Assembly (NCBI GenBank): GCA_035626575.1
Contig: DASPNK010000456.1
Location: 1 to 30,660 of the forward strand
Direction: 5' to 3'
DNA length: 30,660 nucleotides
DNA from: Planctomycetota bacterium
GTDB lineage: Bacteria; Planctomycetota; GCA-002687715; CAIWVZ01
The notes below the pieces were generated by a model. It searched no databases and was not told the origin of the DNA. It saw only the letters and a list, made by a program, of their open reading frames with translations. A program made the position numbers and the translations under genes. Shown piece by piece: positions 10,957 through 30,660 of this stretch. How positions within the stretch are numbered: position 1 is the stretch's first letter; each line of letters begins with the position of its first letter.

Positions 10957-10986
10957 CCGTCGACCCGGCCGGCGGGCCGGAGCGCG

Positions 10987-11006: not shown

Positions 11007-11058
11007 GGCCCCGACCCCGCGACCTGCGCCGCGGACCCTCCGCAGTCAAAGGAACGCC

Positions 11059-11613: not shown

Positions 11614-11617
11614 TCCC

Positions 11618-13962: not shown

Positions 13963-14777
13963 CGGTCATGGAGGGAACCGCGCCGACGCGCATCCATCCC
14001 ACCGCGGTGATCGACCCGAGCGCCGAGATCGGCCCGGGGTGCGACGTCGGCCCTTACGCCGTCGTCCGCGCCGGCGTGCAGATGGGCGCGAACTGCCGTA
14101 TCGGCGCGTGGTCGAGCGTCGGACCCTGGGTGCGGCTCGGGCGCGACAACACGGTCTACGACCACGCCGCCGTCGGCGGCGACCCGCAGGACAAGAGCTG
14201 GCGCGGCGAGCCCACCTGGCTCGTCCTCGGCGACGGGAACCAGGTGCGCGAGTTCGCCACCCTCAACCGCGGGACGTCGAAGGGCGACGGCGTGACGCGC
14301 ATCGGGAACCGCAACCTCTTCATGGCGTGCTCGCACGTCGCGCACGACTGCACGGTGGGCGACGGCTGCGTCTTCGCCAACAACGTCCTGCTGGCGGGCC
14401 ACGTCTTCGTCGAAGACGGCGCCATCCTCAACGGCGCGGCGGGCGTGCAACAGTTCACCACCGTCGGGCGACTCGCCTACGTCGGCGGGCTGACGCGCAT
14501 CGTGCACGACGTGCCGCCGTACATGATCGTCGAGGGCAACCCGGCGAAGGTGCGCAAGCCCAACGTCGTCGGCATGCAGCGCGCGGGCGTCCCCGAGGAG
14601 CGCATCGCCGCCGTGCGCGAGGCGCATCGCATGCTCTTCCGCAGCAAGCGCCCGCAATCGGAGGTCCTCGACGAGCTGGTCGGCCGCGCCGACGCCTCGC
14701 CGGAGACGCTGGAGCTGGTCGCGTTCCTGCGCCGCGTCGAGAAGGGCGCCAACGGCCGCGCCCGCGAGAAGAAGTGA
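13959..14777 (+). CDS. lpxA: Acyl-ACP--UDP-GlcNAc acyltransferase
   Basis: Start ATG 13959 (ATGA overlap; 13968 also possible). IHPTAVID, PQDK, IREF-like VREFATLNRGT, HVAHDC, LAGHV, HDVPPY, GNPA. Confidence 0.95.
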   Translation: MTVMEGTAPTRIHPTAVIDPSAEIGPGCDVGPYAVVRAGVQMGANCRIGAWSSVGPWVRLGRDNTVYDHAAVGGDPQDKSWRGEPTWLVLGDGNQVREFATLNRGTSKGDGVTRIGNRNLFMACSHVAHDCTVGDGCVFANNVLLAGHVFVEDGAILNGAAGVQQFTTVGRLAYVGGLTRIVHDVPPYMIVEGNPAKVRKPNVVGMQRAGVPEERIAAVREAHRMLFRSKRPQSEVLDELVGRADASPETLELVAFLRRVEKGANGRAREKK

Positions 14778-15793
14778 GCGCCGAGCCCCTCGCGGTCGCC
14801 GTCGTCGGCGCCGGCCATCTGGGGCGCATCCACGCCCGCATCCTCTCGGAGCTTCCCGGCGTCCGCCTCGCGGCGGTCGTCGACGCCGACCCGGAGCGCG
14901 CACGCGCCGTCGCCAAAGAGCGCCGCTGCCCCGCGTTGATCGACGCGTCCCAGCTCCCGGCCGACGTTCGGGCGGCGGTCGTCGCGACGCCCACCCGCAC
15001 GCACCACGCCGTCGCCGGCCCCCTGCTCGACCGCGGCGTCGCGTGCCTCGTCGAGAAGCCGATCACCGCGACCGTCGCCGAGGCGCGGGACCTGGTCGAC
15101 CGCGCCGCGCGCTCCGGCGCGACGTTGATGGCGGGCCACGTCGAGCGCTTCAACCCGGCGGTGATCGCGCTCATGGAGCGCGGGCTCAGGCCCCGGTTCT
15201 TCGAGGCGCACCGCGTCTCGCCGTTCAGCTTCCGCTCGGTCGACGTCGGCGTGGTGCTGGACATGATGATCCACGACCTCGACATCGTGCTGCACCTCGC
15301 CCGGTCTCCGCTGCGCCGCGTGGACGCGGTCGGCGTCGCGGTCACCGGCGAGCACGAAGACCTCGCCAACGCGCGCCTCGAGTTCGAGAACGGCGCCGTG
15401 GCCAACCTCACCGCCTCGCGGCTCGCGCTCAAGACCGAGCGCAAGCTCCGCATGTTCGCGCCGGGCTGCTACGCGACGATCGACTTCTTCAAGCGCGAGT
15501 CGCAGATCATCCGCCCCGGCGCCGATCTGAAGCGCGCGCTGGCCGACGGCAAGGCCGCGCTCGGCGCCGTCACGCCGCTGCAGCTCATGACGCGCGACCT
15601 TCTCCGCATCGAGAAGCCTCCGGTGAAGGAGGAGGAGTCGCTGAAGCGCGAGGACGCGGAGTTCCTCGCGGCGGTGCGCGAGCGCCGGGCGCCGGCCGTG
15701 ACCGGCGCGGACGGCCTCGCCGCGGTGGAGGCCGCCGATCGCATCACCGCTTCGCTGCGCGCGCGCGCCGAAGCGGACCGGGAGCCGACCTGA
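14774..15793 (+). CDS. Gfo/Idh/MocA-family NAD-dependent oxidoreductase, GnnA-like (UDP-GlcNAc 3-dehydrogenase candidate), 339 aa
   Basis: Start GTG 14774 overlapping the lpxA stop. VGAGHLGRIH, LVEKP, GHVERFNP, DVGVVLDMMIHDLD, ANLTASR. Confidence 0.85.
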   Translation: MSAEPLAVAVVGAGHLGRIHARILSELPGVRLAAVVDADPERARAVAKERRCPALIDASQLPADVRAAVVATPTRTHHAVAGPLLDRGVACLVEKPITATVAEARDLVDRAARSGATLMAGHVERFNPAVIALMERGLRPRFFEAHRVSPFSFRSVDVGVVLDMMIHDLDIVLHLARSPLRRVDAVGVAVTGEHEDLANARLEFENGAVANLTASRLALKTERKLRMFAPGCYATIDFFKRESQIIRPGADLKRALADGKAALGAVTPLQLMTRDLLRIEKPPVKEEESLKREDAEFLAAVRERRAPAVTGADGLAAVEAADRITASLRARAEADREPT

Positions 15794-16979: not shown

Positions 16980-17030
16980 CGGCGGTCGTTGTAGCGCGGG
17001 GGCCGAAGGACGGCTTGGTACCCTCCCGCC

Positions 17031-17870
17031 GTGCCGGCCGAACCGACCGCCCCGCGCTCCGACCTGCGCGCCGCCGTGCGCGCGCTGCTGGCCGACGCCG
17101 ACGCGTTCGGCGTGCTCGGCGACGGCGCGAACCGCCGCCCGGCCGCCGACGTCGCGCGCGCTTCGACGCCCGCGCGCGGATTCGGTCCCGCGCCGACCGC
17201 GCCGACCGCGCCGGTCCCGCCGCCCCATGCCGCCGCCGCCGCCGCGACGCCTGCGACCTCCCCGGTCGCGGATCCCGCGACCGCGCTCGCCGGCCTCGCC
17301 TGCGAGATCGACGCGTGCCGCCGCTGCGCCCTCGGCGGGCAGCGGACGCGGTCGGTGCCTGGGCAAGGCTCGCCTCGCGCCGAGCTGGTGTTCGTCGGCG
17401 AGGCGCCCGGGGCCGACGAAGACCGCGAGGGCCTCGCGTTCGTCGGCGCCGCCGGCGCGCTGCTGACGAAGATGATCGGCGCGATGGGGTTGTCCCGCGA
17501 CGAGGTGTTCATCGCCAACGTCCTCAAGTGCCGCCCGCCGGGCAACCGCGAGCCGGCGCCGGACGAGGTCGCGCAGTGCCGCGGCTACCTCGAGCGACAG
17601 CTCGCCGCGATCCGCCCGAAGGTGATCTGCGCGCTGGGCGCGCACGCGGCGCGATCGCTCCTTCAGACCGAACAGTCCGTCGGCAAACTTCGAGGCCGCG
17701 CGCACCCGGCCTTCGGCGCGCAGGTCGTGGCGACCTATCACCCCGCCTACCTGCTGCGCACGCCCTCGGAAAAGCCGAAGGCGTGGGAGGACCTGAAGCT
17801 CGTCCTGAAGCTGCTCGGCCGCGAGCCGCCGGCGCGCGCGCCCGCGGCGGCGCCGGAGCCCGTCGCTTGA
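17031..17870 (+). CDS. udg: Uracil-DNA glycosylase family 4 (4Fe-4S)
   Basis: CRRC, VFVGEAPGADED..G.AFVG.AG.LL, NVLKCRPPGNREP..C, ATYHPAYLLR. Confidence 0.92.
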   Translation: MPAEPTAPRSDLRAAVRALLADADAFGVLGDGANRRPAADVARASTPARGFGPAPTAPTAPVPPPHAAAAAATPATSPVADPATALAGLACEIDACRRCALGGQRTRSVPGQGSPRAELVFVGEAPGADEDREGLAFVGAAGALLTKMIGAMGLSRDEVFIANVLKCRPPGNREPAPDEVAQCRGYLERQLAAIRPKVICALGAHAARSLLQTEQSVGKLRGRAHPAFGAQVVATYHPAYLLRTPSEKPKAWEDLKLVLKLLGREPPARAPAAAPEPVA

Positions 17871-17896
17871 CGACCGTTCTCGCGGACTCATAGGAT
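17867..17896 (+). promoter_or_regulatory. Sigma70-type promoter for the pilM-like operon
   Basis: TTGACG (17867-17872, overlapping the udg stop), 18 nt, TAGGAT (17891-17896). Confidence 0.55.
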
Positions 17897-17948: not shown

Positions 17949-19631
17949 ATGAACCAGCTGCCCGTCTGGGGTATCGACTTGACGGCCGCGAACCTGCGCG
18001 CCGTCCGGCTCTCGCTCGACGCCTCGGGCAAGCCGCGCGCCGACGCCTGGGACGCCATCGATTTCGCCGAGGACGTCGAAGACGTGCGCGGGGTCGGCCG
18101 CTACGACGCGATGTCGAAGGCGGTGAAGCGGTTCCTGAAGCACCAGGACGTCCGCAACGCGCGCACGATCGTCTCCATCCGCGGCGAAACGGCCTTCAAC
18201 CGCACCGTGACGGCGCCCCAGCTCAACGACGAAAGCCTGGACAAGATCCTCGGCTACGAGGCGCAGCAGCAGATCCCGTATCCGCTCGACGACGTCTACT
18301 GGGACCGCCGCGTCGTCGGCCTGAAGGAAGGCGGCGACGTCACCGTCACGCTGTACGCGATCCGGAAGCAGCAGGTCGACGACCGCATCCGGAAGCTGCA
18401 CCTGATGCACCTGCCGGTCGACGCGGTGCAGCTCCGCCCGCTGGCGCTGCAGAACTTCTGCGCCGCCGAACGGCTGCTCGAGCACGGCACGGCGGTGGTC
18501 GATTTCGACTACGCGGGGCTCCAGATCCTCGTCTGCCACGACGACCGCACCTGGTTCCGCTGCCTTCCCACCGGGGCGTGCGACTTCGTCGAGCGGCTCA
18601 AGTCGAAGTTCCGGCTCGACCACGCCTCCGCGGTTCGGCTCGCGACCGGGCAGACGGCGCCGAAACCGTCCCAGGCCGCGGCGTTCGCCGCGCTCCGCGC
18701 CGCCGCCGCCGAAGAGACGGCCGCCGAGGTCGCGGGGCAGATCCGCTACTACCGCGAGCTTCACGACGCGCCGCCGATCACGCGGATCCATCTGTTCGAA
18801 GCCCACGCCGCGTGCCCGCCGCTGGCGGACGCGCTCCGCGCCGCGACCGGCGTCGAGACGCACCGGCCGATGGGCTTCAAGTCGCTCGCCGTCGAAGGCG
18901 AGGTGGTGGCCGTCGGCCTGCAGGACAACTTCGCGGGCCTCGCGCGCGCCGCGGGGCTCGCGCTGCAGGGCGTGGGCAAGGCCGACACCGCGGTCCGGCT
19001 TTATCCGGACACGATCCCGCGCACGTTCAGCCGCCGGAAGGCGGGCTACCTGCCCGCCGCGGCGTGCCTCCTCGTGATGGCCGTCGTCGGCTACTCCCAG
19101 CGCGCCGCGCCGCGCGCCCGCTTCGAGGAATTGAACGTACGGTTCGGCGCGAAGCTCGACGCCGTCCGGCGCGAACCGCGCGACAGGGTCGAGCGCGCGA
19201 AACTCGCCGACGACCCGGTCAAGCCGGTGATCGACCGTTGGACCGCGCGCGCGGGGGCTCGCGAAGGGCGCACGCCCTGGCTCCGCGCGCTGCTCGACGC
19301 GCTGAAGGCGGCCCCCGGCCGCGACGTCGGCGCCGCGCCCTTGCTCGTCGCCTTCGAAACCGGCGACGCGCCGGGCCGCGCCCTGAAGGCCGGCGTCGGG
19401 CGGCTCGTCCTCGCGCACGTCGAGAACGCCGCGCCGGCCGAGGTCGACGCGCGACTCGACGCGTTCGCCGCCTCGCTCGTCGGGAAGGAAGGGCTGAAGT
19501 CCGCGAAGCCCTCCGGCGACGGCTGGTCGGCGGCGGCGCCGCGCTCGGTTCCCGGCGGCGCCGACGACCGCCTGCTCCGCTTCCGCTTCCGTCACCGGGC
19601 CTACGACCTCGCCTGGGAGGACGCCCGATGA
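17949..19631 (+). CDS. PilM-like actin-fold protein fused to a PilN-like TM/periplasmic domain, 560 aa
   Basis: WGIDL, YEAQQQIPYPLDDVYWD, VTLYAIRK, VDAVQLRPLAL.N, GLALQG match the PilM pattern; then VRLYP, a TM helix, a coiled coil and an alpha/beta domain. Confidence 0.75.
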   Translation: MNQLPVWGIDLTAANLRAVRLSLDASGKPRADAWDAIDFAEDVEDVRGVGRYDAMSKAVKRFLKHQDVRNARTIVSIRGETAFNRTVTAPQLNDESLDKILGYEAQQQIPYPLDDVYWDRRVVGLKEGGDVTVTLYAIRKQQVDDRIRKLHLMHLPVDAVQLRPLALQNFCAAERLLEHGTAVVDFDYAGLQILVCHDDRTWFRCLPTGACDFVERLKSKFRLDHASAVRLATGQTAPKPSQAAAFAALRAAAAEETAAEVAGQIRYYRELHDAPPITRIHLFEAHAACPPLADALRAATGVETHRPMGFKSLAVEGEVVAVGLQDNFAGLARAAGLALQGVGKADTAVRLYPDTIPRTFSRRKAGYLPAAACLLVMAVVGYSQRAAPRARFEELNVRFGAKLDAVRREPRDRVERAKLADDPVKPVIDRWTARAGAREGRTPWLRALLDALKAAPGRDVGAAPLLVAFETGDAPGRALKAGVGRLVLAHVENAAPAEVDARLDAFAASLVGKEGLKSAKPSGDGWSAAAPRSVPGGADDRLLRFRFRHRAYDLAWEDAR

Positions 19632-20476
19632 CCGTGCTCAGAAACCCGGCCACGTTCTGGGCCGCGACCGCCGCGCTGGTCGTCGCCGCCGGCGTCACGT
19701 GGTTCATGAAGGTGGTCCCGGAAGAGAGGGCGCTGGAGAGCGCCGCCCGCGAAGCCGAGGCGTTGCGCGCCGAAGCGGCCCGCCTCATGCCGACGGCGTC
19801 GGGGCACGCGTACGCGCAGAGCGTCGAGCAGTTCGCCGTCGCGCGGCGCCGCCTCGCGCAGGACTTCGAGGCCCAGCGGCTGCGCGCCGCGGGCAAGCTC
19901 TCCCAGTGGTTCTCCGAGCTGACGATCCCGGAGGGCGCCGACAAACCCGCGCGCGACGAGTTCCAGCGCGGCTACGCGTTCCACCGCGACAGGCTCGACA
20001 ACGAGATCCGCGATCTGGTGCGCCGCGCGGGAGGCCCGGAGATCCGCGAAGCGGCGATCATGAAGCCCGCGTTCCTGAACGGCCCGCCGCCGAAGGAGGA
20101 CGAGATGCTGCGCTGGCAGCGACTCGCCAACGTCGAACGCTTCCTCCTCGAGGCGGCCGCGCAGCAGGCGGGCTATCCGATGCAGGCGCTCGAGGTCTCC
20201 GAAGAAGCCGCGCCGCTCAACGACCCCGACCCCGGCTATCTCCGCTACCGCGTGCGCGGCCGGTTCGCGACGCCGACCGCGCGCGTCGCGGACCTGCTGA
20301 CGGCCCTCGTGCACGGCGGCGACGAGTACGGCGTGTTGACCCGCCTCGACGGCGCGGCCGTGGAACCCGCAGCGCCGGACGCTCCGAAGGCGGCCGACGC
20401 CGATCCGCCGGTCGCCGTGGCCGTATCGCTCGCGCTCGGATTCCCGACGGCCGTTCCCGGCGGAGCCGCTCGATGA
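19628..20476 (+). CDS. PilO / Amuc_1100-like alignment protein, 282 aa
   Basis: ATGA overlap; N-terminal TM helix, coiled coil, alpha/beta C-terminus (YRVRGRF...LLTAL...LTRLDG); position after pilM/N. Confidence 0.55.
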   Translation: MTVLRNPATFWAATAALVVAAGVTWFMKVVPEERALESAAREAEALRAEAARLMPTASGHAYAQSVEQFAVARRRLAQDFEAQRLRAAGKLSQWFSELTIPEGADKPARDEFQRGYAFHRDRLDNEIRDLVRRAGGPEIREAAIMKPAFLNGPPPKEDEMLRWQRLANVERFLLEAAAQQAGYPMQALEVSEEAAPLNDPDPGYLRYRVRGRFATPTARVADLLTALVHGGDEYGVLTRLDGAAVEPAAPDAPKAADADPPVAVAVSLALGFPTAVPGGAAR

Positions 20477-21522
20477 GGGAAGAACATCTCGAGGTCCGCC
20501 AGAGCCCGCGGCGCGTCGACAACCCGATCCTCGCCAACGTCCACGTCGTCGTGTTCCTCGCCGCGCTGGCGCTGGTCGCGCTGCAGGCGGCCGGCGTGAT
20601 CCTCGCGCCCGCCTACGGGCCGCGCGAGCTGAAAGACGTCGAGGACGCGCACCAGGCGTTCGAAACCGCCGCCAACACCGCGCAGTTCCCGGTGGAGGCG
20701 CGCACCCGCGAAACTTCCGACGAGCTGGCGGCGGTCGCCGCTGCGCTCAAGCCCAAGCCGCCGCCCGCCTCGGCCCCGGTCCGCGGGCTCACGTATCCGC
20801 CCACCTACCTCGAGACCCTGAAGCCCGGCGCGTCGAACGAGATCAAGTTCGCGCCGCCGACGGGCGTACGCGCCTCCGCCGAAGTGGGCGGCGTCGACCT
20901 CGTCTGGGCCGACCCGGCGGGGAACAACGTCGCGATCGGCGAGTTCGAAATCCTGCGCTCGGAGGACGGGGGAGACCTCGTGCCGACCGCGAAGGTCAAG
21001 GGCGACCAGTTCGCCTGGCGGGACGCCTCGGCCGTCCCCGGCAAGGACTACGTCTATCGGGTCCGGGCGGTCACCCGGGAAGGCGCCGTCGGGTCGGCGG
21101 GCGTCGCCCGGTCCGATCTTTCCGACGCAGCCCAGGTCCGCGCCATCGCCGACTTCAAGATCGAACTGGTCGACTTCCTGCCCGACGCGGCGCGCTTCCG
21201 CGTCTCCCGGTGGAGGGACGGCGACTGGCGCACGCGGATCTTCGAGGTCGCGCAGGGGCGGCCGATCGGCGGGCGGGACGAGGCGCTCGGCGTGGATTAC
21301 TCCACCGGGCGCCGCCTGGCGTCGTTCGTCGTCGAGGAGCGCACGGAGCCCGCCTCCCGGGAGGAAGTGGTCTTCGGCCCCGACGCGAAGGTCGTGGTTG
21401 AAGACGGCGCGCCCCGGAAGGTCAAGGTCGTCCGCGACGTGATCGTCCGGAAGGCCGTCGCGACCGTCGACGGCGGCGCGCTGCCGCCGGAGACGCTGAC
21501 GCTCGAGAAACGCCCTCAGTGA
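20473..21522 (+). CDS. Membrane-anchored protein with Pro-rich linker and fibronectin type III domain (PilP slot), 349 aa
   Basis: ATGA overlap; TM at about residues 19-44; KPKPPPASAP; FN3 pattern PPTGVRA..VDLVW..FEILRS..WRD..VPGKDYVYRVRAV. Confidence 0.65.
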   Translation: MREEHLEVRQSPRRVDNPILANVHVVVFLAALALVALQAAGVILAPAYGPRELKDVEDAHQAFETAANTAQFPVEARTRETSDELAAVAAALKPKPPPASAPVRGLTYPPTYLETLKPGASNEIKFAPPTGVRASAEVGGVDLVWADPAGNNVAIGEFEILRSEDGGDLVPTAKVKGDQFAWRDASAVPGKDYVYRVRAVTREGAVGSAGVARSDLSDAAQVRAIADFKIELVDFLPDAARFRVSRWRDGDWRTRIFEVAQGRPIGGRDEALGVDYSTGRRLASFVVEERTEPASREEVVFGPDAKVVVEDGAPRKVKVVRDVIVRKAVATVDGGALPPETLTLEKRPQ

Positions 21523-21552
21523 GCGCGCCGGGGAATCCCGCGCACGTCGAGG

Positions 21553-21580
21553 TTGCGAGGGGAGGCCTCATCCCTATAAT
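21553..21580 (+). promoter_or_regulatory. Sigma70 promoter with perfect -10, upstream of the secretin gene
   Basis: TTGCGA (21553-21558), 16 nt, TATAAT (21575-21580). Confidence 0.7.
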
Positions 21581-21796
21581 CCGGCCTCCCGTTTGGAAGA
21601 AAGACGGACGAGCCGCGCCCGCGAAGACCTCCGGGCGCGCTCGGCGACACGCGCGAGTCGACATTCAATCGTTGGAACGAAGGTCCTGCGCCCGAGGAGA
21701 TCACGTCGCGTCCACCTGCCTGCCGTGGACGGCGTCGATCGGTGCGTCGGACTCGGTCGGGACGAGGCTCCCTTCCGTCATACGCGAGAACCGCTG

Positions 21797-24379
21797 ATGC
21801 AACGTTGCACCCATTCCCGGGGCGTCTGGTTGGTGGTCGGGGCCCTCTCCCTGACGGCGGGTTGCTCGTCGTCGAAGTCCGAGGAGGCGCCCGCGACGCC
21901 CCCGGTCGACGCGGGCGCGACGCCCGCGGCGACCGCCGCTCCGCAGGACCCGGCCGCCACGCCGACCCCGCAGGACGTCGCCGAGCGTCAACGGCAGATC
22001 GACGCCAAGCGACGCGAACTGTCCAACGCCGCGGTGCGCACCGGCCGCGAGCTGGCCGCGCAGGGCCGCCTCGCCGAGGCGCGGCAGGAGTTCCTCAACG
22101 CGTACAGCCTCGACGTGACCAACCGCGACGCGCAGCTCGAACTCGACAGGATGAACGTCCTGCTCGGCCGCGAGACGACGGGCGCCACGCCCCAGGCGCG
22201 GGACGAATGGGGCGGCCGCCTCGCCAAACAGGACGCCGCGATGGTCGAAGCGAGGCACCACATGAGCCTCGGCCGTCAGGCCCGCGCCGAAGGCGACCAC
22301 GCGCGCGCCGTCGAGCACTTCTCGAAGGCCTACACGATCCTGAAGGCCAATCCGTCGTTCGACGCCGACTTCAACGAAGCGAGCGTCCGCGCCGCTCTCG
22401 ACCAGGCCCGCGCCGACCAGCAGGCGGCGGAGCGCGACGAGCGCCGCGCCAACGCGCAGCGCGCGGCCGACGTCGAGCGTCAGCGCGAGGAGGCCGAGCG
22501 CGCCCGCGTGCGCCGCATGGTCGACGAGACCTACCGCCAGGCGGTCGATCAGTTCCGCCGCGAGAAGTTCGCCGACGCGCAGCGCCTCGCCGACGAGGTG
22601 ATCCGCCTCGACTACCAGCACGCGCAGGCGAAGCGGCTGAAGGAAGAGGCGCGCCAGGCCGAGATCGACCAGCGCCGCGCCGAGAACATCGCCGCCCACC
22701 GCGAACAGTGGCAGCGCTTCATCGAAGAAGTGACCGAGGCCCGCATCCCGCTCACCGACGACGTGACGTACCCGTCGCTCGACAAGTGGAAGCAGATCTC
22801 CGATCGCGGCCCGATCGAGCTGAGCCCCGAAGACCTGCGCCCGTCGGAGCTGGATGAAGACGTCCGCCGTCGTCTCGCCGGCACCGTGCTGCGCTCGGTC
22901 GACTGGACCGACAAGCCGCTCGCCGACGCGATCAAGTTCATCCGCAACACGGCGGGCGTGAACATCGTCGTCGACGCGGCGGTGAACGAGAAGGTCCCGG
23001 AAGCCGATCGCATCCTTTCGTTGACCTTCGACCAGATTTCGGCGGAGAGCGCGCTCAAGCTCGCGGCCGAAAGCCTCAAGCTGAACTACATCGTCGACGG
23101 CGGCCTCGTGCGCATCACCACGCCCGAGGAGATGGCCAAGGTCAAGACGACGAACTTCTACTTCGTCGGCGACCTCACCGGCCGCATCATGAACTACCCG
23201 GGCACCGAGCTGAACCTGAACCCGTCGGGCTCGGCGCCGAACCTCGGCGTGCCGGAAGAAGACACCGAAGAGAACCGCCCGCTCGAAGCCGACAAGGTCA
23301 TCGACATCGTCAAGAACGCCGTCGACAAGGCTTCGTGGGACGACGGCTCGGGCAACTCGATCGTCGACAAGAACGGCACGCTCGTCGTCAAGCAGACGGC
23401 GGCGAACCACCGTGCGATCAAGAGCGTCCTCGCCGATCTCCGCAAGACGACCGGCCTGCAGGTGATGATCGAGAGCCGGTTCATCTCGGTCGAGAACAAC
23501 TTCCTCCAGGACATCGGCGTCGACTTCCGCGGCCTGGGCGACAACTCGGGCGGCGTCGGCCTGCCGGGCCCCGGCACCAGCGCGCCGTTCGACGACAACG
23601 GGCTCCCGGGCACGTCGTCCCCGCTCGGCAGCGACAACTCGGCCGGCTTCTTCTACTCGCGCGGCGCCGACGGCGACATCCGCGGGCGCGCCGAGAACGT
23701 CTTCAACTCGGCCCTCGGCAATCCGGACACGCTGACGAGCTCGGGCGGGTTCTCGCTCCAGTTCGCCTACCTCGACGACACGCAGGTCGAGGCGATCCTC
23801 CGCGCGGTCCAGAAGTACGAGCGGGTGAACACGGTGACGGCGCCGAAGCTGGTGGTGTCGAACACCCAGCGCGCGCACCTGCAGGTGATCAACCACATCG
23901 CCTACGTGAAGGACTTCGACGTCGAAATCGCGCAGGCGGCGGTCATCGCCGACCCGGTGGTCGACGTGATCAAGGAAGGCGTCATCCTCGACGTGCGCCC
24001 GACGGTCTCCAACGACCGCCGGTTCGTCACCCTCGAGCTGCGCCCGACCGTCGCGACCGTCCAGCGCCCGATCCGAACCTTCACCACGACCCTCGGCGTC
24101 GGCGCGGCCGTCACCTTCGAAGTGCCCGAACTCAAGAAGGAAAGCATCAAGACCACGGTCGTGATGCCCGACGGCGCGACCCTCCTCCTCGGCGGCATGA
24201 AGTTCTACGAGGAGCAGGACTACAACTCGGGGATCCCGGTCCTCAAAGACATCCCGATCCTCAGCTTCCTGTTCTCGCGCAACGGCAAGTACACGAGCCT
24301 TCGGGACCTCATCGTGTTGCTGAAGGTGCGGATCATCATCGCGAACGAGCTGGAGCCGGGGAGCCCCTCGAACGTCTGA
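21797..24379 (+). CDS. Lipoprotein secretin (PilQ/GspD-like) with N-terminal TPR/coiled-coil region, 860 aa
   Basis: Start moved to ATG 21797; lipobox LTAG-C23; QVMIESRFISV, APKLVVSNTQRA, EGVILDVRPTVS, TTVVMPDGATLLLGG, GIPVLKDIPILSFLF, LIVLLKVRII. Confidence 0.9.
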   Translation: MQRCTHSRGVWLVVGALSLTAGCSSSKSEEAPATPPVDAGATPAATAAPQDPAATPTPQDVAERQRQIDAKRRELSNAAVRTGRELAAQGRLAEARQEFLNAYSLDVTNRDAQLELDRMNVLLGRETTGATPQARDEWGGRLAKQDAAMVEARHHMSLGRQARAEGDHARAVEHFSKAYTILKANPSFDADFNEASVRAALDQARADQQAAERDERRANAQRAADVERQREEAERARVRRMVDETYRQAVDQFRREKFADAQRLADEVIRLDYQHAQAKRLKEEARQAEIDQRRAENIAAHREQWQRFIEEVTEARIPLTDDVTYPSLDKWKQISDRGPIELSPEDLRPSELDEDVRRRLAGTVLRSVDWTDKPLADAIKFIRNTAGVNIVVDAAVNEKVPEADRILSLTFDQISAESALKLAAESLKLNYIVDGGLVRITTPEEMAKVKTTNFYFVGDLTGRIMNYPGTELNLNPSGSAPNLGVPEEDTEENRPLEADKVIDIVKNAVDKASWDDGSGNSIVDKNGTLVVKQTAANHRAIKSVLADLRKTTGLQVMIESRFISVENNFLQDIGVDFRGLGDNSGGVGLPGPGTSAPFDDNGLPGTSSPLGSDNSAGFFYSRGADGDIRGRAENVFNSALGNPDTLTSSGGFSLQFAYLDDTQVEAILRAVQKYERVNTVTAPKLVVSNTQRAHLQVINHIAYVKDFDVEIAQAAVIADPVVDVIKEGVILDVRPTVSNDRRFVTLELRPTVATVQRPIRTFTTTLGVGAAVTFEVPELKKESIKTTVVMPDGATLLLGGMKFYEEQDYNSGIPVLKDIPILSFLFSRNGKYTSLRDLIVLLKVRIIIANELEPGSPSNV

Positions 24380-24402
24380 CGCTTCGCGGTTCGAGGCGCG
24401 GC

Positions 24403-24434
24403 GGGCGCGCTCCGGCCTCCGGTCGGGCGCGCCC
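24403..24434 (+). terminator. Hairpin after the secretin gene (possible weak terminator)
   Basis: GGGCGCGC (24403-24410) / GCGCGCCC (24427-24434); only a poor U-tract follows. Confidence 0.3.
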
Positions 24435-24546
24435 CTCGCCTTTCGGCCGCTTCCGTTGAACCGAGGTTGCGTTGCCGGCGTTCGTCTTGTTATTCAGCGG
24501 TCCGCCGGGTTCCCTCCTTCCCCGGCGTCGTACGACGGAACTCACC

Positions 24547-27500
24547 ATGCGTACGTCTCGACCCGGCTTCGGCCGGTGGTCGGCGGTTCTTCTCCTCGCC
24601 TGCTCCGCCGCCGTCGCGCAGTCCGCCTCGAAATACAGCGACTACGAATGGGCGGAGGCGCTGGCCGGTCCGCCCTTCGGCTTCGACGACATGGCCGAGG
24701 TCATCTTCACGAAGATGACCTCGGACGCGTCGCGGTCCGAAGTCGAGAAGCTGCAGGGGCGCATGGGCGTCGCCAACCTCAAGCGCAAGCAGGCGCGCAA
24801 CGCGACGGGGATCGACTCGAAGCTCAAGCTCTTCGACGAAGCCGTCAAGGCGATCAAAGAGGTCAAGAAGGAGTGGCCGGACAAGCAGAAGGACGAGTAC
24901 TTCGACGTCGTCTTCCGCGCGGTCGACTTCCTGCAGGACCGCGGCGAACTGGCGATGGAGTCGGCGCTCGATCCTGAAACCGACCCCTCGAAGGTCGACA
25001 GCCTCAAGCAGAAGGCCTCGAGCGATTTCACCGAAGCCAAGAACGACCTCGCGAGCATCCGCGAGCAGTTCAAGGACGCCAAGGAGGACGGCAGCGAGGC
25101 CGAAGTCGCCAAGTGGCGCCTCAAGAACCGCGCGTGGTTCACCTACTGCGTGATGCTCTACAGCGAGGCGATGGCCGCGAAGGACGGCTCGGTCCAGCAG
25201 GGGCAGAGCCTCTCCGAAGCCGCCAACCAGCTCGAGGAGTTCATCCTCCACAACGAGGATGACGAGAACGTCGAGAAGATGCTCGGCGCCCTCTACGGGC
25301 AGGTGTGGCGCGGCAAGGTGCTGCGCGCGTCGAAGAACATCCCCGAGGCGCTCACGTCTTTCGAAGGTCCCATCGCCGTCGTGCGCTGGGACAACAAGGC
25401 GCCGCTCGACGAGGTGACCCAGGGGCTGGTCGAGCTCGCGTACTTCGAGCTGCTCGACACGCTCAACGCCGAGCGCCGCTTCGACGATGCCCGCGTCAAG
25501 GGCGAGGAGCTCGAGGCGCGCGCGAAGCTGAAGCAGATGACCCTCGGCGTCCGCGGCCGCGCCGCGCGCGTCGAGTTCGCGCGGGCGTGCTTCGAAACCG
25601 GCGAGGTGAGCCGGGCGCTCGAGGTCGCCGGCGAAATCGCCCGCGACGGCAAGAACGACCCGTCGGGCCAGCGCGCGACCAAGCTGATCGCGCAGATCAT
25701 CTCGTCCACGCCCGACAAGTCGCAGTTCAGCCCCGTCGTCCTTCTGAACGCGGCGCGCGGCGCCTACGTCGACCGTGCGACCGACGCGACCAAGCGCGAA
25801 GAAGCGATCGTCTACTTCCGCATGGCGCTCCCGCTGCTCGGACAGATCAAGTCCGAGGCCGAACGCGTCCAGGCGGCCGCCGAAGCGTGGTTCAAGTACG
25901 GCTACTGCCTGATGGAGAAGGACCTCCTTCTCGAGGCGGCGAACGCGTTCGCCGAGGGCTACCGCACCACGTGGGGCGCCCGCAAGGAGCTCCTGCAGAA
26001 CGACGAGGGCAAACAGTACGCGGGCGAGCTGTTCACGCGGTGGAAGAAGACCGCCGAAGAGTTCCAGCGCCGCACCAAGTCGCCGCAGGCCCAGGCGATG
26101 CTCGACGAGTTCAGCCTCGCGTCGCGCAATATGCCGCCGCCCGATACGTTGGCCTTCAGCCCGGGCGACGCCGCCTTCGAAGAAGCCGCGAAGCTCGAGA
26201 AGGCGGGTAAGTTCCAGGAGGCCGCCGACAAGTACCAGGAGGTCTGCGGCAAGCCGCCGGAGTTCACCGACGGGCTCGGCGGCCGGTACAAGGAACGCGC
26301 CATCGTCAAGCTCGGCGTCTGCCGCATGCAGGTCGCCAAGCGCCTCGCCGACAAGCGAAACCCGGAGGCGGAAGGCGCGCTGAAGGCTGCCGTGGCGTCG
26401 CTCGACGGCTTCCTCAAGCGCGTCGAAGACCCGCGCTTCACGGAGACCGACCCGCTCAAGCTCGAAGAGCGGAAGGTGGCGCAGGCCGAAGCGCGCTGGC
26501 GCATCAGCGACGCGTACCTCTCGCTCGCCGAAATCGCCAAGGACGACGCCGCGAAGCGCGCGCATCTCGCCGCGGCGGTCAAGGCCGTCGAGGGTTTCGA
26601 AGCGACGTTTGCAGGACAGCAGAGCCTTGCGATGTTCGCCGTGGCCAACCGCGTCGAAGCGCTCATCGCGCTCGAGCAGCTTCCCAAGGCCGAGGAGGAA
26701 TACCTCGTCGTCAAGAAGCTCGGCGCCGATCACGCCAAGGTCGCCGAAACCGCGCAGCGCCTCGGCAAGGCCCTCCGCGACGGCGCGGAGGCGAAGAAGA
26801 AGGGCTTGGATCCGAAGATCCAGCAGATGCAGATCGACGCTCTGAAGCCCCAGTTCCTCCGCGCGGCGAGCTACTACCGGGAGTGGATCCGCAACCCCGG
26901 CGGCCAGGCGGCCAAGAAGTTCGACAACTGGAGCGCCGTCGCCTACTACTTCTTCGACGCCGGCGATATGGCGTCGGCGGCCGAGTTGTACCGCGCCGCG
27001 CTCGATCAGTTCGGCAACACGACGAAGGCCGATCCGGGGCAGCTGCAGGCGGCCCGCTACTACCTGCTGCGGGCGAACGACCAGATGGTCGACGAGCTCG
27101 TTTCGGAGCAGAAGGACCCGACGCGACTGCTCTCGGAGAACGCGCGACTCCTCAGCGACCACCTGATGAAGCCGACGCCGGAAGGCGCGGCGACGGCCGG
27201 CGGGAAGAAGTTCCAGTACCACCTCCAGCTCGACGTGCTGCGCATCGCCGGCCGCACGTGGGGCGGCTTCATGGTTCGCCGGGGCGGCGCCTGGGCGTAC
27301 CTGCCCGCGATGGGCGAGTACCAGAAGGCGCTGGAGGTCTGGAACGACATCTACAAGCGCGCGGAGCGCGGGTCCGACCTCGACTGGGAGTCGACCTTCT
27401 ACCGCTACTACCTGCTGCACAAGTTGAACCAGCTGAGCAACTCGAACCTCGACCAGGTGAAGAAGCTCTTCGCGACGCTTGCGGCGACGACGCAGCGCGA

Positions 27501-27555
27501 TTTCGGGGGACCGAAGTGGAAACCGTGGTTCGAGTGGCTCGAGCGGCAGCTCTGA
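24547..27555 (+). CDS. Large exported all-alpha TPR-like protein, 1002 aa
   Basis: Start ATG 24547; Sec signal (AVA-Q); repeated TPR-like helices (EAWFKYGYCL..LLEAANAFAEGY, AYYFFDAGDMASAAELYRAAL); strong host-like codon bias. Confidence 0.75.
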   Translation: MRTSRPGFGRWSAVLLLACSAAVAQSASKYSDYEWAEALAGPPFGFDDMAEVIFTKMTSDASRSEVEKLQGRMGVANLKRKQARNATGIDSKLKLFDEAVKAIKEVKKEWPDKQKDEYFDVVFRAVDFLQDRGELAMESALDPETDPSKVDSLKQKASSDFTEAKNDLASIREQFKDAKEDGSEAEVAKWRLKNRAWFTYCVMLYSEAMAAKDGSVQQGQSLSEAANQLEEFILHNEDDENVEKMLGALYGQVWRGKVLRASKNIPEALTSFEGPIAVVRWDNKAPLDEVTQGLVELAYFELLDTLNAERRFDDARVKGEELEARAKLKQMTLGVRGRAARVEFARACFETGEVSRALEVAGEIARDGKNDPSGQRATKLIAQIISSTPDKSQFSPVVLLNAARGAYVDRATDATKREEAIVYFRMALPLLGQIKSEAERVQAAAEAWFKYGYCLMEKDLLLEAANAFAEGYRTTWGARKELLQNDEGKQYAGELFTRWKKTAEEFQRRTKSPQAQAMLDEFSLASRNMPPPDTLAFSPGDAAFEEAAKLEKAGKFQEAADKYQEVCGKPPEFTDGLGGRYKERAIVKLGVCRMQVAKRLADKRNPEAEGALKAAVASLDGFLKRVEDPRFTETDPLKLEERKVAQAEARWRISDAYLSLAEIAKDDAAKRAHLAAAVKAVEGFEATFAGQQSLAMFAVANRVEALIALEQLPKAEEEYLVVKKLGADHAKVAETAQRLGKALRDGAEAKKKGLDPKIQQMQIDALKPQFLRAASYYREWIRNPGGQAAKKFDNWSAVAYYFFDAGDMASAAELYRAALDQFGNTTKADPGQLQAARYYLLRANDQMVDELVSEQKDPTRLLSENARLLSDHLMKPTPEGAATAGGKKFQYHLQLDVLRIAGRTWGGFMVRRGGAWAYLPAMGEYQKALEVWNDIYKRAERGSDLDWESTFYRYYLLHKLNQLSNSNLDQVKKLFATLAATTQRDFGGPKWKPWFEWLERQL

Positions 27556-27583
27556 TCAGGCGTCCGCCTCCGGGAGTGAACGC

Positions 27584-28729
27584 ATGAACGTTCGTTGGAC
27601 GCTGGTGTTCGCGGCGTGTGTCGCCGCGACCGCGGTCGCGCAGGACAAGAAGGACGCGGGCAAGAACGGCAAACCCGCCGACAAGGCCGCCGAGAAGGCG
27701 GCGCCGCGTCCGATCGACCGCGTCAACCGCACCGGCGGCAAGCCGTCGGTCAAAGGCACGGTCACGGCGGAGACCTGCGTCGAGGTGGTGATCCGTCGCG
27801 AGAACAACACCGAGGAGCGCATCCCGGTCGACGACGTGCTCTCGGTCGACCGCGGCGACGCGCCCGAAGCGTACCGTCGCGGCGTCGCCGCGTTCGGCGC
27901 CGGCGATTACCCGAACGCCGTCCAGCTGCTCACCCGCGCGCTCACCGAGAACGCCGACAAGGCGTGGCTCGGCGAGGCGGCGAACTTCTACCTCGGCGAA
28001 GCGTCGCGCCTGAGCGGCAAGCACGACGACGCCGTCAAGGCGTACGACGCGGTCGTCGCCGCCAAGGGCGATTCCCGGTTCCTCGCACCGGCTCGACTGG
28101 GCCAGGCTCGCGCGCAGATCGCCGCCTCCCGGTTCCCGGACGCCGAGAAGACCCTCAACGGGTTCCTCGCGGAGGCCGAGGCGAAGAAAATCCCGCGCCG
28201 CCACGTCCTCAAGGCCCGCGAGATGATCGGGAAGAACCTCGAAGCGCAGAACCGCTTCGGCGAAGCCGTCGGGGCCTACGACGCCGTCGTCCGGGAGGCC
28301 GGGAATCTCGCCAAAGACGACCCCGGCGTCGCCGAACGGATCCGGACCGCGCAGCGAGCCAAGGCGTCCTGTCTGATCCGCGAGAAGAAGTACGACGAGG
28401 CGGCGCGGCTGCTCGACGGCCTGGCCGCCGACAAGTCGCCGGCAGGGGAGGCCATGGCCCTCACCGGCCGCGGCGAATCCCTCCTGGCGCAGGGCAAGTT
28501 CGACGACGCCCGGGCGACGCTCGCCCGGGTGATCGGAGCGCGCTTCCATGACGACCACGAGCTCGCGCGCGCCATGCTGCTGATGGCGAAAACCCTGCTC
28601 GAAATCGACAAGGAAGGGAAGGACGCGTCCGCCGCGAAAACGGCGCAGTCCTACCTGACCGATCTGGTAGAACAACACGCCGCATCCGAGTTCTCCAAAG
28701 AGGCTCGAATGCTCAAAGACAAGCGGTAG
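27584..28729 (+). CDS. Exported TPR protein with small N-terminal beta-domain, 381 aa
   Basis: Start ATG 27584 with GGGAG SD; signal peptide AVA-Q; KGTVTAET..IPVDDVLSV beta-domain, then about 6-7 TPR motifs (ANFYLGEA, ARLGQARAQ, ALTGRGESLL). Confidence 0.8.
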   Translation: MNVRWTLVFAACVAATAVAQDKKDAGKNGKPADKAAEKAAPRPIDRVNRTGGKPSVKGTVTAETCVEVVIRRENNTEERIPVDDVLSVDRGDAPEAYRRGVAAFGAGDYPNAVQLLTRALTENADKAWLGEAANFYLGEASRLSGKHDDAVKAYDAVVAAKGDSRFLAPARLGQARAQIAASRFPDAEKTLNGFLAEAEAKKIPRRHVLKAREMIGKNLEAQNRFGEAVGAYDAVVREAGNLAKDDPGVAERIRTAQRAKASCLIREKKYDEAARLLDGLAADKSPAGEAMALTGRGESLLAQGKFDDARATLARVIGARFHDDHELARAMLLMAKTLLEIDKEGKDASAAKTAQSYLTDLVEQHAASEFSKEARMLKDKR

Positions 28730-28810
28730 GAACGCCGCGTCACTCGTTGGATGAGCGTCGGCCCCTCCCGACGCTAGAGCTGAAGCTCGGATCACAGGAA
28801 GCACCGAACC

Positions 28811-29515
28811 ATGACTCGATTCTTGACGACGGTCGCCGTGCTGGCGCTCTGCGTCGCGCCGATGACCGCCCAGTCCCAGGAAGGGCAATACAACAGCACC
28901 GCCAGCCTCCTCATCAACGGCGGCGGCGGCATCGGCTACGTCATCGTCCTCATGTCGGTCGTCGGCTTCGCGCTGATGATCGAAGCCGCGATCACCATCT
29001 CGCGCAAGAAGCTGGCGCCGCCGGAGATCATCGATCAGCTCCGGTCGCACCTCGAGAACAAGGACTTCCAGGCGGCCTTCGACCTCTGCGAGCAGAACCC
29101 CGGCTACGTGACGAACGTCATGCACGCCGCGCTGCCGAAGGTCGACCACGGCTTCGAAAAGATGGAGGAAGCCGCGGGCGGCGTCGCCGAAGAAGAGGCG
29201 ATCAAGCTGCACAGCAAGATCTCCTACATGTCCCTGCTCGGCTCGGTGTCCCCGCTGCTCGGCCTGTACGGCACGGTGTGGGGCATGATGATGGCGTTCG
29301 AAACCATCGAGAAGCAGGCGTCGCCGAAACCGTCCGAGCTGGCGTTGGGCATCAAGATCGCGCTCGTGACGACCTTCCAGGGTCTCTCGGTCGCCATCCC
29401 GCTGAACGTCGGGTTCTTCTTCTTCCGCAACCGCGTCGTCTCGCTGGTGCTGGAGATGGGCGCGCTGATCGAAGACCTGCTCGAGCCGTTCCGCCCGGCG
29501 CCGGGACAGGGCTGA
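28811..29515 (+). CDS. MotA/TolQ/ExbB proton-channel protein
   Basis: SPLLGLYGTVWGMMMAF and GIKIALVTTFQGLSVAIP, with both conserved Thr; N-terminal signal-like segment. Confidence 0.92.
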   Translation: MTRFLTTVAVLALCVAPMTAQSQEGQYNSTASLLINGGGGIGYVIVLMSVVGFALMIEAAITISRKKLAPPEIIDQLRSHLENKDFQAAFDLCEQNPGYVTNVMHAALPKVDHGFEKMEEAAGGVAEEEAIKLHSKISYMSLLGSVSPLLGLYGTVWGMMMAFETIEKQASPKPSELALGIKIALVTTFQGLSVAIPLNVGFFFFRNRVVSLVLEMGALIEDLLEPFRPAPGQG

Positions 29516-29540
29516 GAGACCGTCGATCCGAGCTCGGGTT

Positions 29541-29562
29541 CCCCGTCGCTCCTGCGACGGGG
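29541..29562 (+). other. 9-bp hairpin between exbB and the first exbD
   Basis: CCCCGTCGC-TCCT-GCGACGGGG; no U-tract. Confidence 0.55.
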
Positions 29563-29589
29563 GGCCGTGACACGTAACGAGGAGCCGCC

Positions 29590-30177
29590 ATGGCGCTCAA
29601 GAAGCACAGCACGCCGACCGGCGAGGCGAAGGTCGATCTGACGCCGATGATCGACGTCACCTTCCAGCTCATCATCTTCTTCGTGCTCGTCACCGACATG
29701 TCGCAGCGCGAGCTGGAAGTGCTTACGCTTCCCATGGCGCCGATCGCCGTCGAAGACGTGCCCGATCCGAAAGACGAACGCATCGTCGTCAACATCGTCG
29801 ACCTCGACAATCCGGAGGTCACGGGCAACAAGAACCTCCCGCCGATCTTCATCCAGGGCCGCCAGATGACGTCGCTGGAGGAGATGCGCAAGGTGCTGTT
29901 CCAGCGCGCCGACCCGCGCCGCTATCCCGACACGACGCGGCCTCCGGTCAGCCAACCGCCGAACGGACCGCTGATCTACCCCTCGTCGAAGCCGCTGCTC
30001 ATCCGCTGCGATCAGCACCAGGTGTTCGGCTGGGTGCAGGCGGTGATGCAGTACTGCAGCTTTGTTCCGGGCAACCCGCAGAACGAAGAGCTGGCGAACA
30101 GCCCGTTCATCTACAAGATCGAGATCGGCGCGCGTCGAAAGGACGCCTCCGAAGTGGACCCGGCGACCGGGAAGTGA
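29590..30177 (+). CDS. ExbD/TolR-family protein 1
   Basis: DLTPMIDVTFQLIIFFVL with the conserved TM Asp (D22); LLIRCD..VQAVM; SD GAGGAG. Confidence 0.9.
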   Translation: MALKKHSTPTGEAKVDLTPMIDVTFQLIIFFVLVTDMSQRELEVLTLPMAPIAVEDVPDPKDERIVVNIVDLDNPEVTGNKNLPPIFIQGRQMTSLEEMRKVLFQRADPRRYPDTTRPPVSQPPNGPLIYPSSKPLLIRCDQHQVFGWVQAVMQYCSFVPGNPQNEELANSPFIYKIEIGARRKDASEVDPATGK

Positions 30178-30207
30178 TCGCGTTCGGGAAAGCGAGGGAG
30201 CACGCAC

Positions 30208-30660
30208 ATGGCGCGTAGAAGACGAGCCGGCTTGGACAAGATCCAGGAGAGCTACGAAATCGACTTCACGTCGATGATCGACGTGACGTTCCAGCTCCTG
30301 ATCTTCTTCATGCTCACCCTCAAGTTCAAAGTGCTCGAGGGCAAGCTGCAGTCATTGCTGCCGGCGGACAAAGGTCTGTCGAGCAAGCAGGAACAGATCG
30401 AATTCGAGGATCTTGAGATCATCCTCAAGGTGCTTGAAGAGGATAAGGGAAAGCCCGCCAGCGAGCGGCGCGTCCGCTACTTCCGGAACAAGAGCAACAC
30501 GCCCTTCGGCGTGTCGACCCCGGAATGGGATGCCGAGCGGAAGCAGTTCAAATGCGATCCGCCCGACACCATGGACCGCATCCGCGCGCACATGAAGTCG
30601 GTGCGCGAAGCGGCGCCGGAGGCGAAGGCGAAGATCAATGCGTGGCCGGAGGTGCCGAAC
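30208..30660 (+). CDS. ExbD/TolR-family protein 2, truncated by the window end
   Basis: Not in the ORF track. ATG 30208 with GAGGGAG SD: MARRRRAGLDKIQESYEIDFTSMIDVTFQLLIFFMLTLKFKVLEGKLQSLLP...; TM Asp D25; open to base 30660. Confidence 0.88.
   Translation, partial: MARRRRAGLDKIQESYEIDFTSMIDVTFQLLIFFMLTLKFKVLEGKLQSLLPADKGLSSKQEQIEFEDLEIILKVLEEDKGKPASERRVRYFRNKSNTPFGVSTPEWDAERKQFKCDPPDTMDRIRAHMKSVREAAPEAKAKINAWPEVPN

Follow-up and report, generated by a model that had tools for sequence, protein, structure and literature searches.

A Planctomycetota envelope gene cluster with an ExbB/ExbD/ExbD motor cassette between two TPR-secretins: a candidate proton-powered machine

In this work, we analyzed a 30,660-nucleotide (nt) stretch of DNA from a Planctomycetota bacterium (the window), which is the entire contig C456 (DASPNK010000456.1) of a soil-metagenome-assembled genome (GCA_035626575.1; 729 contigs, 83% completeness). 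The envelope genes in its 3′ part are, judged from gene content and order, one copy of a Planctomycetota-wide cluster, the conserved core of which consists of a secretin, a tetratricopeptide repeat (TPR) protein of ~1000 amino acids (aa; T1), a second TPR protein of ~380 aa (T2), ExbB, ExbD1, ExbD2, and another secretin. That these genes make up a functional unit is well supported by synteny. Whether their products form a proton-powered secretin machine of the kind encoded by the MUL loci of Akkermansia, most likely serving polymer uptake, is a question on which we regard the scales as evenly poised.

RESULTS

Linkage of secretin and motor genes across Planctomycetota

Profile hidden Markov models (HMMs) were built from the cluster proteins, and 128 related loci (2.18 Mb) were mapped. 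The relatives' loci obtained from a scan of the collection were all of Planctomycetota type, a few of them carrying wrong labels. Sixty-two loci, all from species-representative genomes, were informative because they extended far enough downstream of the secretin. In 46 of these, T1-T2-ExbB-ExbD-ExbD follows directly after the secretin, and a second secretin closes 35 of the 46, while two adjacent secretins without the motor were found at 11 of the 62 loci. In such split cases, the T1-T2-ExbB-ExbD-ExbD unit is encoded elsewhere, as was seen in five of five adjacent-secretin genomes and in genome G002. At least three families of the taxonomic order retain the full order of PilM-N, PilO-like, FN3, secretin 1, T1, T2, ExbB, ExbD, ExbD, sulfatase-TPR, and secretin 2.

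An even sample of 121 genomes of the phylum, nearly all at least 90% complete, gave a similar picture. Orthologues of the cluster-type ExbB are present in 107 genomes, with matches from other families reaching 1e-30 to 1e-81, and the TPR-secretin is present in at least 90, its count being a lower bound at the threshold of E ≤ 1e-40. Both proteins occur in 84 genomes, the secretin only in 6, ExbB only in 23, and neither in 8; all six genomes of family f32 (~99% complete) lack both. Among the 84 genomes holding both, ExbB lies within ~10 kb of the TPR-secretin on the same contig in 60, as counted from coordinates. These numbers are given as counts, with no statistical test, because related genomes are not independent.

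An earlier note on this DNA, made from the letters of the window, had joined a secretin half to a TPR-ExbB-ExbD-ExbD half and had called for synteny profiling of the two across the phylum. The profiling confirmed that the halves are linked in most relatives (46/62 loci and 60/84 genomes), and genomes in which the linkage is broken still retain the two blocks at other sites. The linkage thus counted suggests an association wider than chance or shared regulation would produce. Family f7, represented by complete genomes of 44% G+C, shows a different arrangement: TPR (1207 aa)-TPR-ExbB-ExbD-ExbD stands alone among unrelated genes, in two cassette copies, and the secretin-domain open reading frames (ORFs) of 1250-1700 aa lie at least ~36 kb from the cassette, with no close TPR-secretin (e.g., G099:C1:2012622-2013596).

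The arrangement is also reflected in the phylogeny of the proteins. Secretins encoded upstream and downstream of ExbB fall into separate clades, one with 48 upstream and 0 downstream members (support 0.88) and the other with 26 downstream and 0 upstream members (support 1.0), so placed that the two cluster secretins appear to have diverged anciently. ExbD type 1 followed by type 2 is the fixed paralogue order in 54 of 67 loci, a third ExbD being added in 9. The separate secretin clades and the fixed ExbD order suggest that selection has acted on the arrangement.

Modular make-up of the cluster

The earlier note had taken nine consecutive plus-strand envelope genes as one unit, and all nine were found at the coordinates it gave (Table 1). 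The run from the secretin through the TPR genes to the second ExbD is indeed conserved, with a second secretin to be added to it, and the PilM-N, PilO-like, and FN3 genes in front proved to be separable. Of 52 loci, 21 have PilM-N upstream of the secretin, and in 15 the secretin is linked to PilM-N as well as to the motor. Three of five genomes without PilM-N at the secretin encode a PilM-N fusion elsewhere, with no secretin near it. In distant lineages, unrelated genes (MiaB-like, FG-GAP/ASPIC, or TPR) stand 5′ of the secretin, and the core (secretin, T1, T2, ExbB, two or three ExbD, secretin) is intact.

The three intergenic gaps to which the earlier note had drawn attention as possible boundaries of transcription units are present, measuring 274 bp (21523-21796), 167 bp (24380-24546), and 81 bp (28730-28810); the remaining distances in the nine-gene run range from -4 to 74 bp, and all genes are on one strand. 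In the 274-bp gap before the secretin, a promoter-like site matches 10 of 12 consensus positions and includes a perfect TATAAT; it is a consensus match only, from a scan that returned 2 sites versus 0.6 expected. The separability of PilM-N, the intact cores of distant lineages, and this promoter-like site together indicate that the cluster is modular, with three components: the scaffold, the two secretins, and the TPR-motor cassette. The PilM-N/PilO/FN3 part is a separable addition, set off by the promoter-like site in front of the secretin, and the secretin pair and the cassette are more tightly bound than the scaffold. Sequencing runs containing the locus are three soil DNA runs, none of them RNA.

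Because the G+C content of the window (~70%) gives rise to many long spurious ORFs, third-position G+C and homology were used for gene calling. A Pfam scan of the window returned PilM_2, Secretin, TPR, MotA_ExbB, and ExbD (twice).

TABLE 1 Features of the envelope gene cluster in the window and on contig C476
Feature	Position	Strand	Evidence and remarks
PilM-PilN fusion, 560 aa	17949..19631	+	Pfam PilM_2; cytoplasmic actin-like PilM domain, one transmembrane helix, periplasmic tail
PilO-like / Amuc_1100-like bitopic protein, 282 aa	19628..20476	+	Fold match (AlphaFold model, Foldseek)
TM-FN3 bitopic protein, 349 aa	20473..21522	+	Model: transmembrane helix, helical stalk, tandem FN3-like domains
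Promoter-like site TTGCGA, 16 nt, TATAAT	21553..21580	+	Consensus scan
Secretin 1, lipoprotein TPR-secretin, 860 aa	21797..24379	+	Pfam Secretin; lipobox LTAGC
T1, exported helical/TPR protein, 1002 aa	24547..27555	+	Signal peptide; profile-HMM orthologues in equivalent slot
T2, exported TPR protein, 381 aa	27584..28729	+	Pfam TPR_16, TPR_2, TPR_19; signal peptide
ExbB/TolQ-type proton-channel subunit, 234 aa	28811..29515	+	Pfam MotA_ExbB 3.9e-24; N-terminal signal-like extension
ExbD type 1, 195 aa	29590..30177	+	Pfam ExbD 8.8e-10; transmembrane aspartate, long periplasmic insertion
ExbD type 2, cut by contig end	30208..30660	+	Pfam ExbD 5.5e-8; C terminus on contig C476
Sulfatase-TPR protein, transmembrane-anchored, 637 aa	L011 (own contig C476) 3158-5071	-	Pfam Sulfatase; C-terminal TPR; between ExbD2 and secretin 2
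Secretin 2, lipoprotein TPR-secretin, 873 aa	Contig C476, after sulfatase-TPR gene		Lipobox, secretin

As the earlier note had supposed, the cluster runs on past the window edge: contig C476 of the same genome carries the end of ExbD2 and two further genes. At the start of the reverse complement of C476 is a peptide matching the C-terminal end of ExbD2 from a relative (G009), which places C456 and C476 next to each other, a few codons apart. The slot after ExbD2 is occupied in relatives by the sulfatase-TPR gene, by a third ExbD, or by secretin 2 directly. Orthologues of the sulfatase-TPR protein share the N-terminal motif [LI]DT[CTFM]RAD, in which the residue after DT is variable.

Secretins and motor proteins

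Secretin 1 (Pfam Secretin, 4.9e-29) starts with a lipobox, which is present in secretin 2 as well, and continues with an N-terminal TPR/helical arm, an N0-like domain and an N-domain, and the secretin domain. Its profile matches solved PilQ, GspD, pIV, and RcpA chains; in addition, residues 72-177 match TPR repeats, and residues 360-446 match a PilQ N0 fragment. Full-length orthologues were found in four of four same-family relatives and in most of the order sampled.

Sequence analysis and the N termini of orthologues revealed cleavable-type signal peptides in both T1 and T2. A word-indexed protein search with T1 yielded only six close relatives besides T1 itself, all unnamed; its Atlas neighbors are Planctomycetota TPR proteins, and orthologues detected by profile HMM occupy the equivalent slot in related loci. 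T2 is always encoded immediately 5′ of ExbB. The protein has a small beta-rich N-terminal region, and its best NCBIfam match is YbgF/CpoB at 51 bits (cut-off 90).

By its residues, the motor appears intact. In ExbB, both channel threonines are invariant. The transmembrane aspartate is invariant in the ExbD alignment, in agreement with the earlier report of the essential residue in both ExbD proteins. At the position of Escherichia coli E176 in the third transmembrane helix of ExbB (window 29330-29350), Ile is found here and in locus L076, and Glu is found in G009 and locus L085. The cluster ExbB is the only copy in its own genome to match at E ≤ 1e-25. Its best NCBIfam match is TolQ, and the matches to TolQ, TolR, and YbgF are all far below the family cut-offs. 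Three relatives have an ExbB match with one in-frame stop each (G008:C71:11229-11846, TGA; G035:C40:16874-17554, TAA; G071:C304:25600-26289, TAG), which may be assembly errors or decaying copies.

The cluster was searched for a TonB/TolA-like transducer, and each candidate was rejected: T1 and T2 for their cleavable-type signal peptides, the sulfatase-TPR protein for its enzyme domain, which follows directly after the transmembrane helix with no Pro-rich linker, and TM-FN3 for the single His in its helix, which is not conserved among orthologues. Inspection of the sequences of the cluster's transmembrane proteins also revealed no conserved SHLS-type helix.

Scaffold proteins and their relation to the Akkermansia MUL2 locus

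PilM-N matches Pfam PilM_2 over residues 8-340 (1.1e-21; 77.6 bits versus a cut-off of 27). With NCBIfam models, it scores 103 bits for Amuc_1101_fam (cut-off 650) and 96 bits for the TIGR pilM family (cut-off 133), both below cut-off. The start of the PilO-like gene overlaps the stop of pilMN by 4 bases. Its product has no sequence-family match in Pfam or NCBIfam, and a profile search against PDB sequences was also empty; TM-FN3 has no NCBIfam match. Since neither protein has a sequence-family match, both were modelled. For the PilO-like protein (AlphaFold, pLDDT 86), the best Foldseek matches are Amuc_1100 crystal structures (E 4.5e-6; TM-score on target 0.54-0.65), followed by Myxococcus and Pseudomonas PilO (3jc8_Oa and 2rjz). 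TM-FN3 (pLDDT 81.5), which has two FN3-like domains behind its stalk, occupies the slot that PilP holds in pilMNOPQ, and its family is restricted to Planctomycetota (Atlas). It was rejected as a PilP/GspC analogue with an HR domain, as the top 50 Foldseek matches are generic FN3 tandems with no PilP or GspC among them.

Secretin 1 scores 102 bits with NCBIfam Amuc_1098_fam (cut-off 750). Matches to these Akkermansia families reach 1e-29, but at ~100 bits against cut-offs of 650-750 they indicate a relative of MUL2 rather than an equivalog. On these matches, the first half of the cluster, scaffold plus secretin, appears to be the counterpart of the Akkermansia Amuc_1098-1102 (MUL2) locus.

ATPase, Ton, and Tol components elsewhere in the genomes

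According to the earlier note, the system has no ATPase, platform, or pilin. This holds for the cluster, and for the ATPase and platform it extends to the 128 related loci, in which no homologue of GspE, PilT, or GspF was found. It does not hold genome-wide, since at least five GspE/PilB-like and four GspF-like genes lie on other contigs. Neither a pilin nor a prepilin peptidase was recognized in the cluster with Pfam and NCBIfam, no genome-wide search being aimed at either. Five genomes were examined for related machinery. Each encodes a canonical pilM (~200 bits) that has a secretin of its own and pilB/T/C in its vicinity, so that canonical pilMNOPQ is separate from the cluster, and each also has type II secretion system (T2SS)-like loci with their own secretins and separate TonB-dependent receptor (TBDR)-ExbB-TonB loci. 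Given these separate loci, the ExbB of the cluster is a dedicated paralogue. All five genomes further possess an "orphan" GspE-PilT-GspE-GspF set without a nearby secretin (C38, C169, C166, and C230 in the genome of the window; G003:C1:383355-389347; G009:C7:127077-132141), with at least four ATPase/platform sets in all. If an ATPase serves the TPR-secretins, the orphan set is the obvious candidate.

The orphan set raises the possibility of a filament machine with an accessory motor. The scaffold and secretins would then belong to type IV filament machinery as its envelope portion, with the ATPase, platform, and pilins encoded elsewhere, and ExbB/ExbD would aid assembly, placement, or retraction. 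Type IV pilus pilMNOPQ genes are usually unlinked from pilBCD, and a model for the motor exists in PocAB-TonB3, which assists type IV pili in Pseudomonas aeruginosa. The presence of an orphan set, among at least four ATPase/platform sets, in each of the five genomes agrees with this explanation, as do the PilM_2 and PilO-fold matches and the pilus-like Akkermansia MUL2 with its pilin-like Amuc_1102 (PMC13174399). However, the canonical pilM and T2SS-like loci of these genomes already have secretins of their own, ATPase or platform genes are syntenic in 0 of 128 loci, the core cluster of distant lineages is entirely without PilM, and the motor is nested between two secretins instead of being appended. 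We therefore consider a filament machine an unlikely, though serious, contender.

TonB_C and TonB-dependent transporter matches were absent from the cluster and were found only at other loci, beside other ExbB paralogues. TolA and TolB are likewise absent from the cluster, and no TolB scored over cut-off in the five genomes; Pal is absent from the cluster, no genome-wide Pal search having been made. The cassette could be a Tol-like one for envelope maintenance, standing in for Tol-Pal in outer membrane tethering or constriction and neighboring the secretins merely through shared envelope regulation. TolQ and YbgF/CpoB as the best NCBIfam matches of ExbB and T2, the lack of TolB over cut-off in five genomes, the near-universal occurrence of the cassette (107/121 genomes), and its stand-alone form in family f7 would suit such a role, and so would the adjoining BamA-Skp-LpxD-LpxC/FabZ-LpxA genes of the window. 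But the Tol matches are all far below the family cut-offs, TolA and TolB were not found, Pal is not in the cluster (it was not searched for genome-wide), and chance neighborhood hardly accounts for a cassette that, in dozens of families, has its place precisely between fixed paralogues of the secretin. We judge this possibility to be quite improbable.

Genes flanking the cluster

Directly upstream of pilMN, positions 17031-17870 encode a family-4 uracil-DNA glycosylase-like protein, identified by its motifs (GEAPG..., HPAYLLR) and having a long Ala/Pro-rich N terminus; a Pfam UDG gene occupies this slot in locus L085. An ORF at 17015-17893 was rejected as a gene because it overlaps the glycosylase-like frame in the wrong frame. 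A glycosyltransferase gene is also located upstream of pilMN, and positions 8521-15793 (+ strand) encode BamA (five POTRA), Skp/OmpH, LpxD, a fused LpxC-FabZ, LpxA, and a Gfo/Idh/MocA oxidoreductase. Genes for GlmU, L25, Pth, S6, S18, L9, and DnaB precede this outer membrane biogenesis block. The uracil-DNA glycosylase, glycosyltransferase, and BamA-LpxA genes do not accompany the cluster in relatives, and the glycosylase-like gene lies outside it.

Past secretin 2, locus L008 (G009:C14) carries at 3883-17001 genes for a HAD hydrolase, an asparagine synthase, a 1049-aa TPR protein, an FHA-GAF sigma-54 activator, a double-FHA protein, and a second PilM-like fusion. G010 likewise has another gene of this PilM-like kind, ~11 kb beyond secretin 2.

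DISCUSSION

The best candidate for a new system was how the earlier note had described this cluster. It does have precedents: a genetically studied relative exists in Akkermansia, as does a published cassette from the Planctomycetes-Verrucomicrobia-Chlamydiae (PVC) group that partly describes the motor genes (PMC12204202). In A. muciniphila, Amuc_1098 is a 907-residue TPR plus secretin protein and the most abundant outer membrane protein (PMC4960237). The Amuc_1098-1102 locus, MUL2, is needed for mucin acquisition (bioRxiv 10.64898/2025.12.30.696933; PMC13174399), and it has been called pilus-like and holds the pilin-like Amuc_1102 (PMC13174399). Likely counterparts of MUL2 proteins are the TPR-secretin (Amuc_1098), the long PilM-like protein (Amuc_1101), and the PilO/PilN-fold protein (Amuc_1100). 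The planctomycete cluster differs in having an FN3 protein before the secretin, two secretin paralogues, and the motor cassette joined into the locus. No match to the Amuc_1102-type pilin-like gene or to Amuc_1099 was found at the cluster by sequence (NCBIfam), a fold comparison with 7DSZ not being part of this search.

The second Akkermansia locus, MUL1, reportedly comprises two TPR proteins (Mul1B and Mul1A), ExbB, and two ExbD, a gene content that Davey and colleagues are said to have described in 2023. If this gene content is right, T1-T2-ExbB-ExbD-ExbD would by its architecture be the equivalent five-gene set, one that in Akkermansia cooperates with MUL2 in importing polymers. On the same premise, MUL1 and MUL2 are apart in Akkermansia, whereas in the planctomycete the corresponding parts are joined, with the motor between two secretins. 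The mul1A gene (Amuc_0544) has been called a mucin transport gene, and its mutants colonize ~100-fold less well (PMC12570417).

The PVC cassette consists of one gene encoding a TPR protein, a tolQ-like gene, two heterologous tolR-like genes, and a vWA force transducer; it is known from Planctomycetes and Verrucomicrobia, its function being unknown (Williams-Jones et al., Mol Biol Evol 2025, PMC12204202). Both have a TPR gene directly 5′ of a TolQ-like gene, with a pair of dissimilar TolR/ExbD genes in the same row. The planctomycete cluster, in contrast, is without the downstream inner-membrane-anchored vWA protein with its TolA/TonB-like SHLS helix, and the description of the PVC cassette (PMC12204202) makes no mention of secretins. 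Our literature search found no paper joining Planctomycetes, secretin, and ExbD, and nothing relevant on crateriform structures and secretin.

With Ton and Tol-Pal, the cluster shares an ExbB/TolQ plus ExbD/TolR proton motor with conserved Asp and Thr, by which energy would be delivered to the outer membrane, but it contains no TonB_C, TolA, TolB, or TBDR, and its would-be outer membrane partner is a secretin instead of a plugged 22-strand barrel. With PilMNOPQ and the T2SS GspLMCD proteins, it has in common a gene order of M, N, O, X, Q, which includes a PilM domain, bitopic proteins of the PilN/PilO type, and a secretin. It differs from them in that PilM and PilN are fused, FN3 domains replace the PilP/GspC HR domain, the secretin, a lipoprotein, carries a TPR arm, and ATPase, platform, and pilin are lacking.

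The motor genes also recall the Agl-Glt machinery of Myxococcus in having one TolQ-like protein, two TolR-like proteins, and a large and a small exported TPR protein, an architectural parallel only. A surface-motility machine of this type would have its TolQ-like and two TolR-like proteins drive periplasmic TPR and outer membrane parts, thereby moving adhesion sites. Gliding, to our knowledge, has not been recognized as a trait across Planctomycetota. The pattern of the Glt core complex, in which AglR/Q/S are joined by the TPR proteins GltC, GltD, and GltE (PMC3169522), and the fixed two-ExbD arrangement would be compatible with motility; the role of this block outside gliders is unknown (PMC3169522). 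Yet the planctomycete cluster has no GltG-like TonB-type anchor and showed no Glt homology in the NCBIfam scan, and Glt relies on beta-barrel outer membrane proteins and is without secretins. A gliding machine is, in our estimate, very improbable.

Returning to a proton-powered secretin machine, we propose that it would comprise three modules. The first would be an inner membrane scaffold made of the PilM-N fusion, the Amuc_1100/PilO-fold protein, and the bitopic FN3 protein; the second, a pair of lipoprotein secretins of ancient divergence, both bearing a TPR arm at the N terminus; and the third, a TonB-less motor cassette of two exported TPR proteins, ExbB, and two distinct ExbD. Proton flow through an ExbB pentamer with an ExbD1/ExbD2 pair would be converted into movement of the ExbD periplasmic domains, and soluble T2 and T1, in place of a TonB/TolA-like arm, would span the periplasm and reach the secretins' TPR arms, such that the work of the motor gates or operates the secretin channels. 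The likeliest use would be to bring large polymers into the periplasm in an energy-dependent way, in line with what genetics indicates for the related MUL loci of Akkermansia. Gene content, folds, conserved catalytic residues, and deep synteny are what the analysis shows; all physical contacts in this scheme, the direction of transport, and the substrate we infer. The earlier note had proposed a trans-envelope conduit energized by the proton motive force (PMF), of which the functional unit is upheld by synteny and the mechanism stays a deduction from gene order. In its most specific form, in which the secretins are PMF operated, ExbB/ExbD1/ExbD2 gating the TPR-secretin pair via soluble TPR adaptors with no ATPase or filament for the uptake of whole polymers, the proposal is tentative and open to doubt.

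Several observations weigh against the proposed machine. Synteny is not contact. In complete f7 genomes, the T1-T2-ExbB-ExbD-ExbD cassette stands alone, far from secretins, and it can therefore presumably work with other partners or by itself. Likewise, the 23 genomes that have ExbB without a TPR-secretin at E ≤ 1e-40 imply that these secretins need not be the sole targets of the motor, or be its targets in the first place. ExbB carries Ile at the E. coli E176 position. Moreover, as the cluster lacks a transmembrane force transducer of the TonB, TolA, or vWA type, the transfer of force from ExbD would be left unexplained, and the ATPase set encoded elsewhere could still serve the secretins.

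Secretins are regarded as passive gates pushed open by ATP-driven filaments, needles, or phage, and ExbB/ExbD motors work on plugged barrels or Pal through arms of the TonB or TolA type. If the coupling proposed here is real, a motor that sits between two secretins and has neither an ATPase nor a TonB-like arm with it would represent a third means by which the outer membrane is powered. The uptake of large polymers by Planctomycetota, into an enlarged periplasm, is energy dependent, and the players in this macromolecule uptake are still unknown (2025 review, PMC12673574). PMF-operated secretins, if true, would be the long-sought machine for whole-polymer uptake into the planctomycetal periplasm. 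Since Akkermansia needs related loci for mucin import, the cluster offers a concrete gene set for the question of planctomycetal uptake, and by gene fusion logic its joined form argues that the separate Akkermansia loci act as one machine. The cluster is thus a testable candidate for the movement of large molecules across the planctomycete outer membrane.

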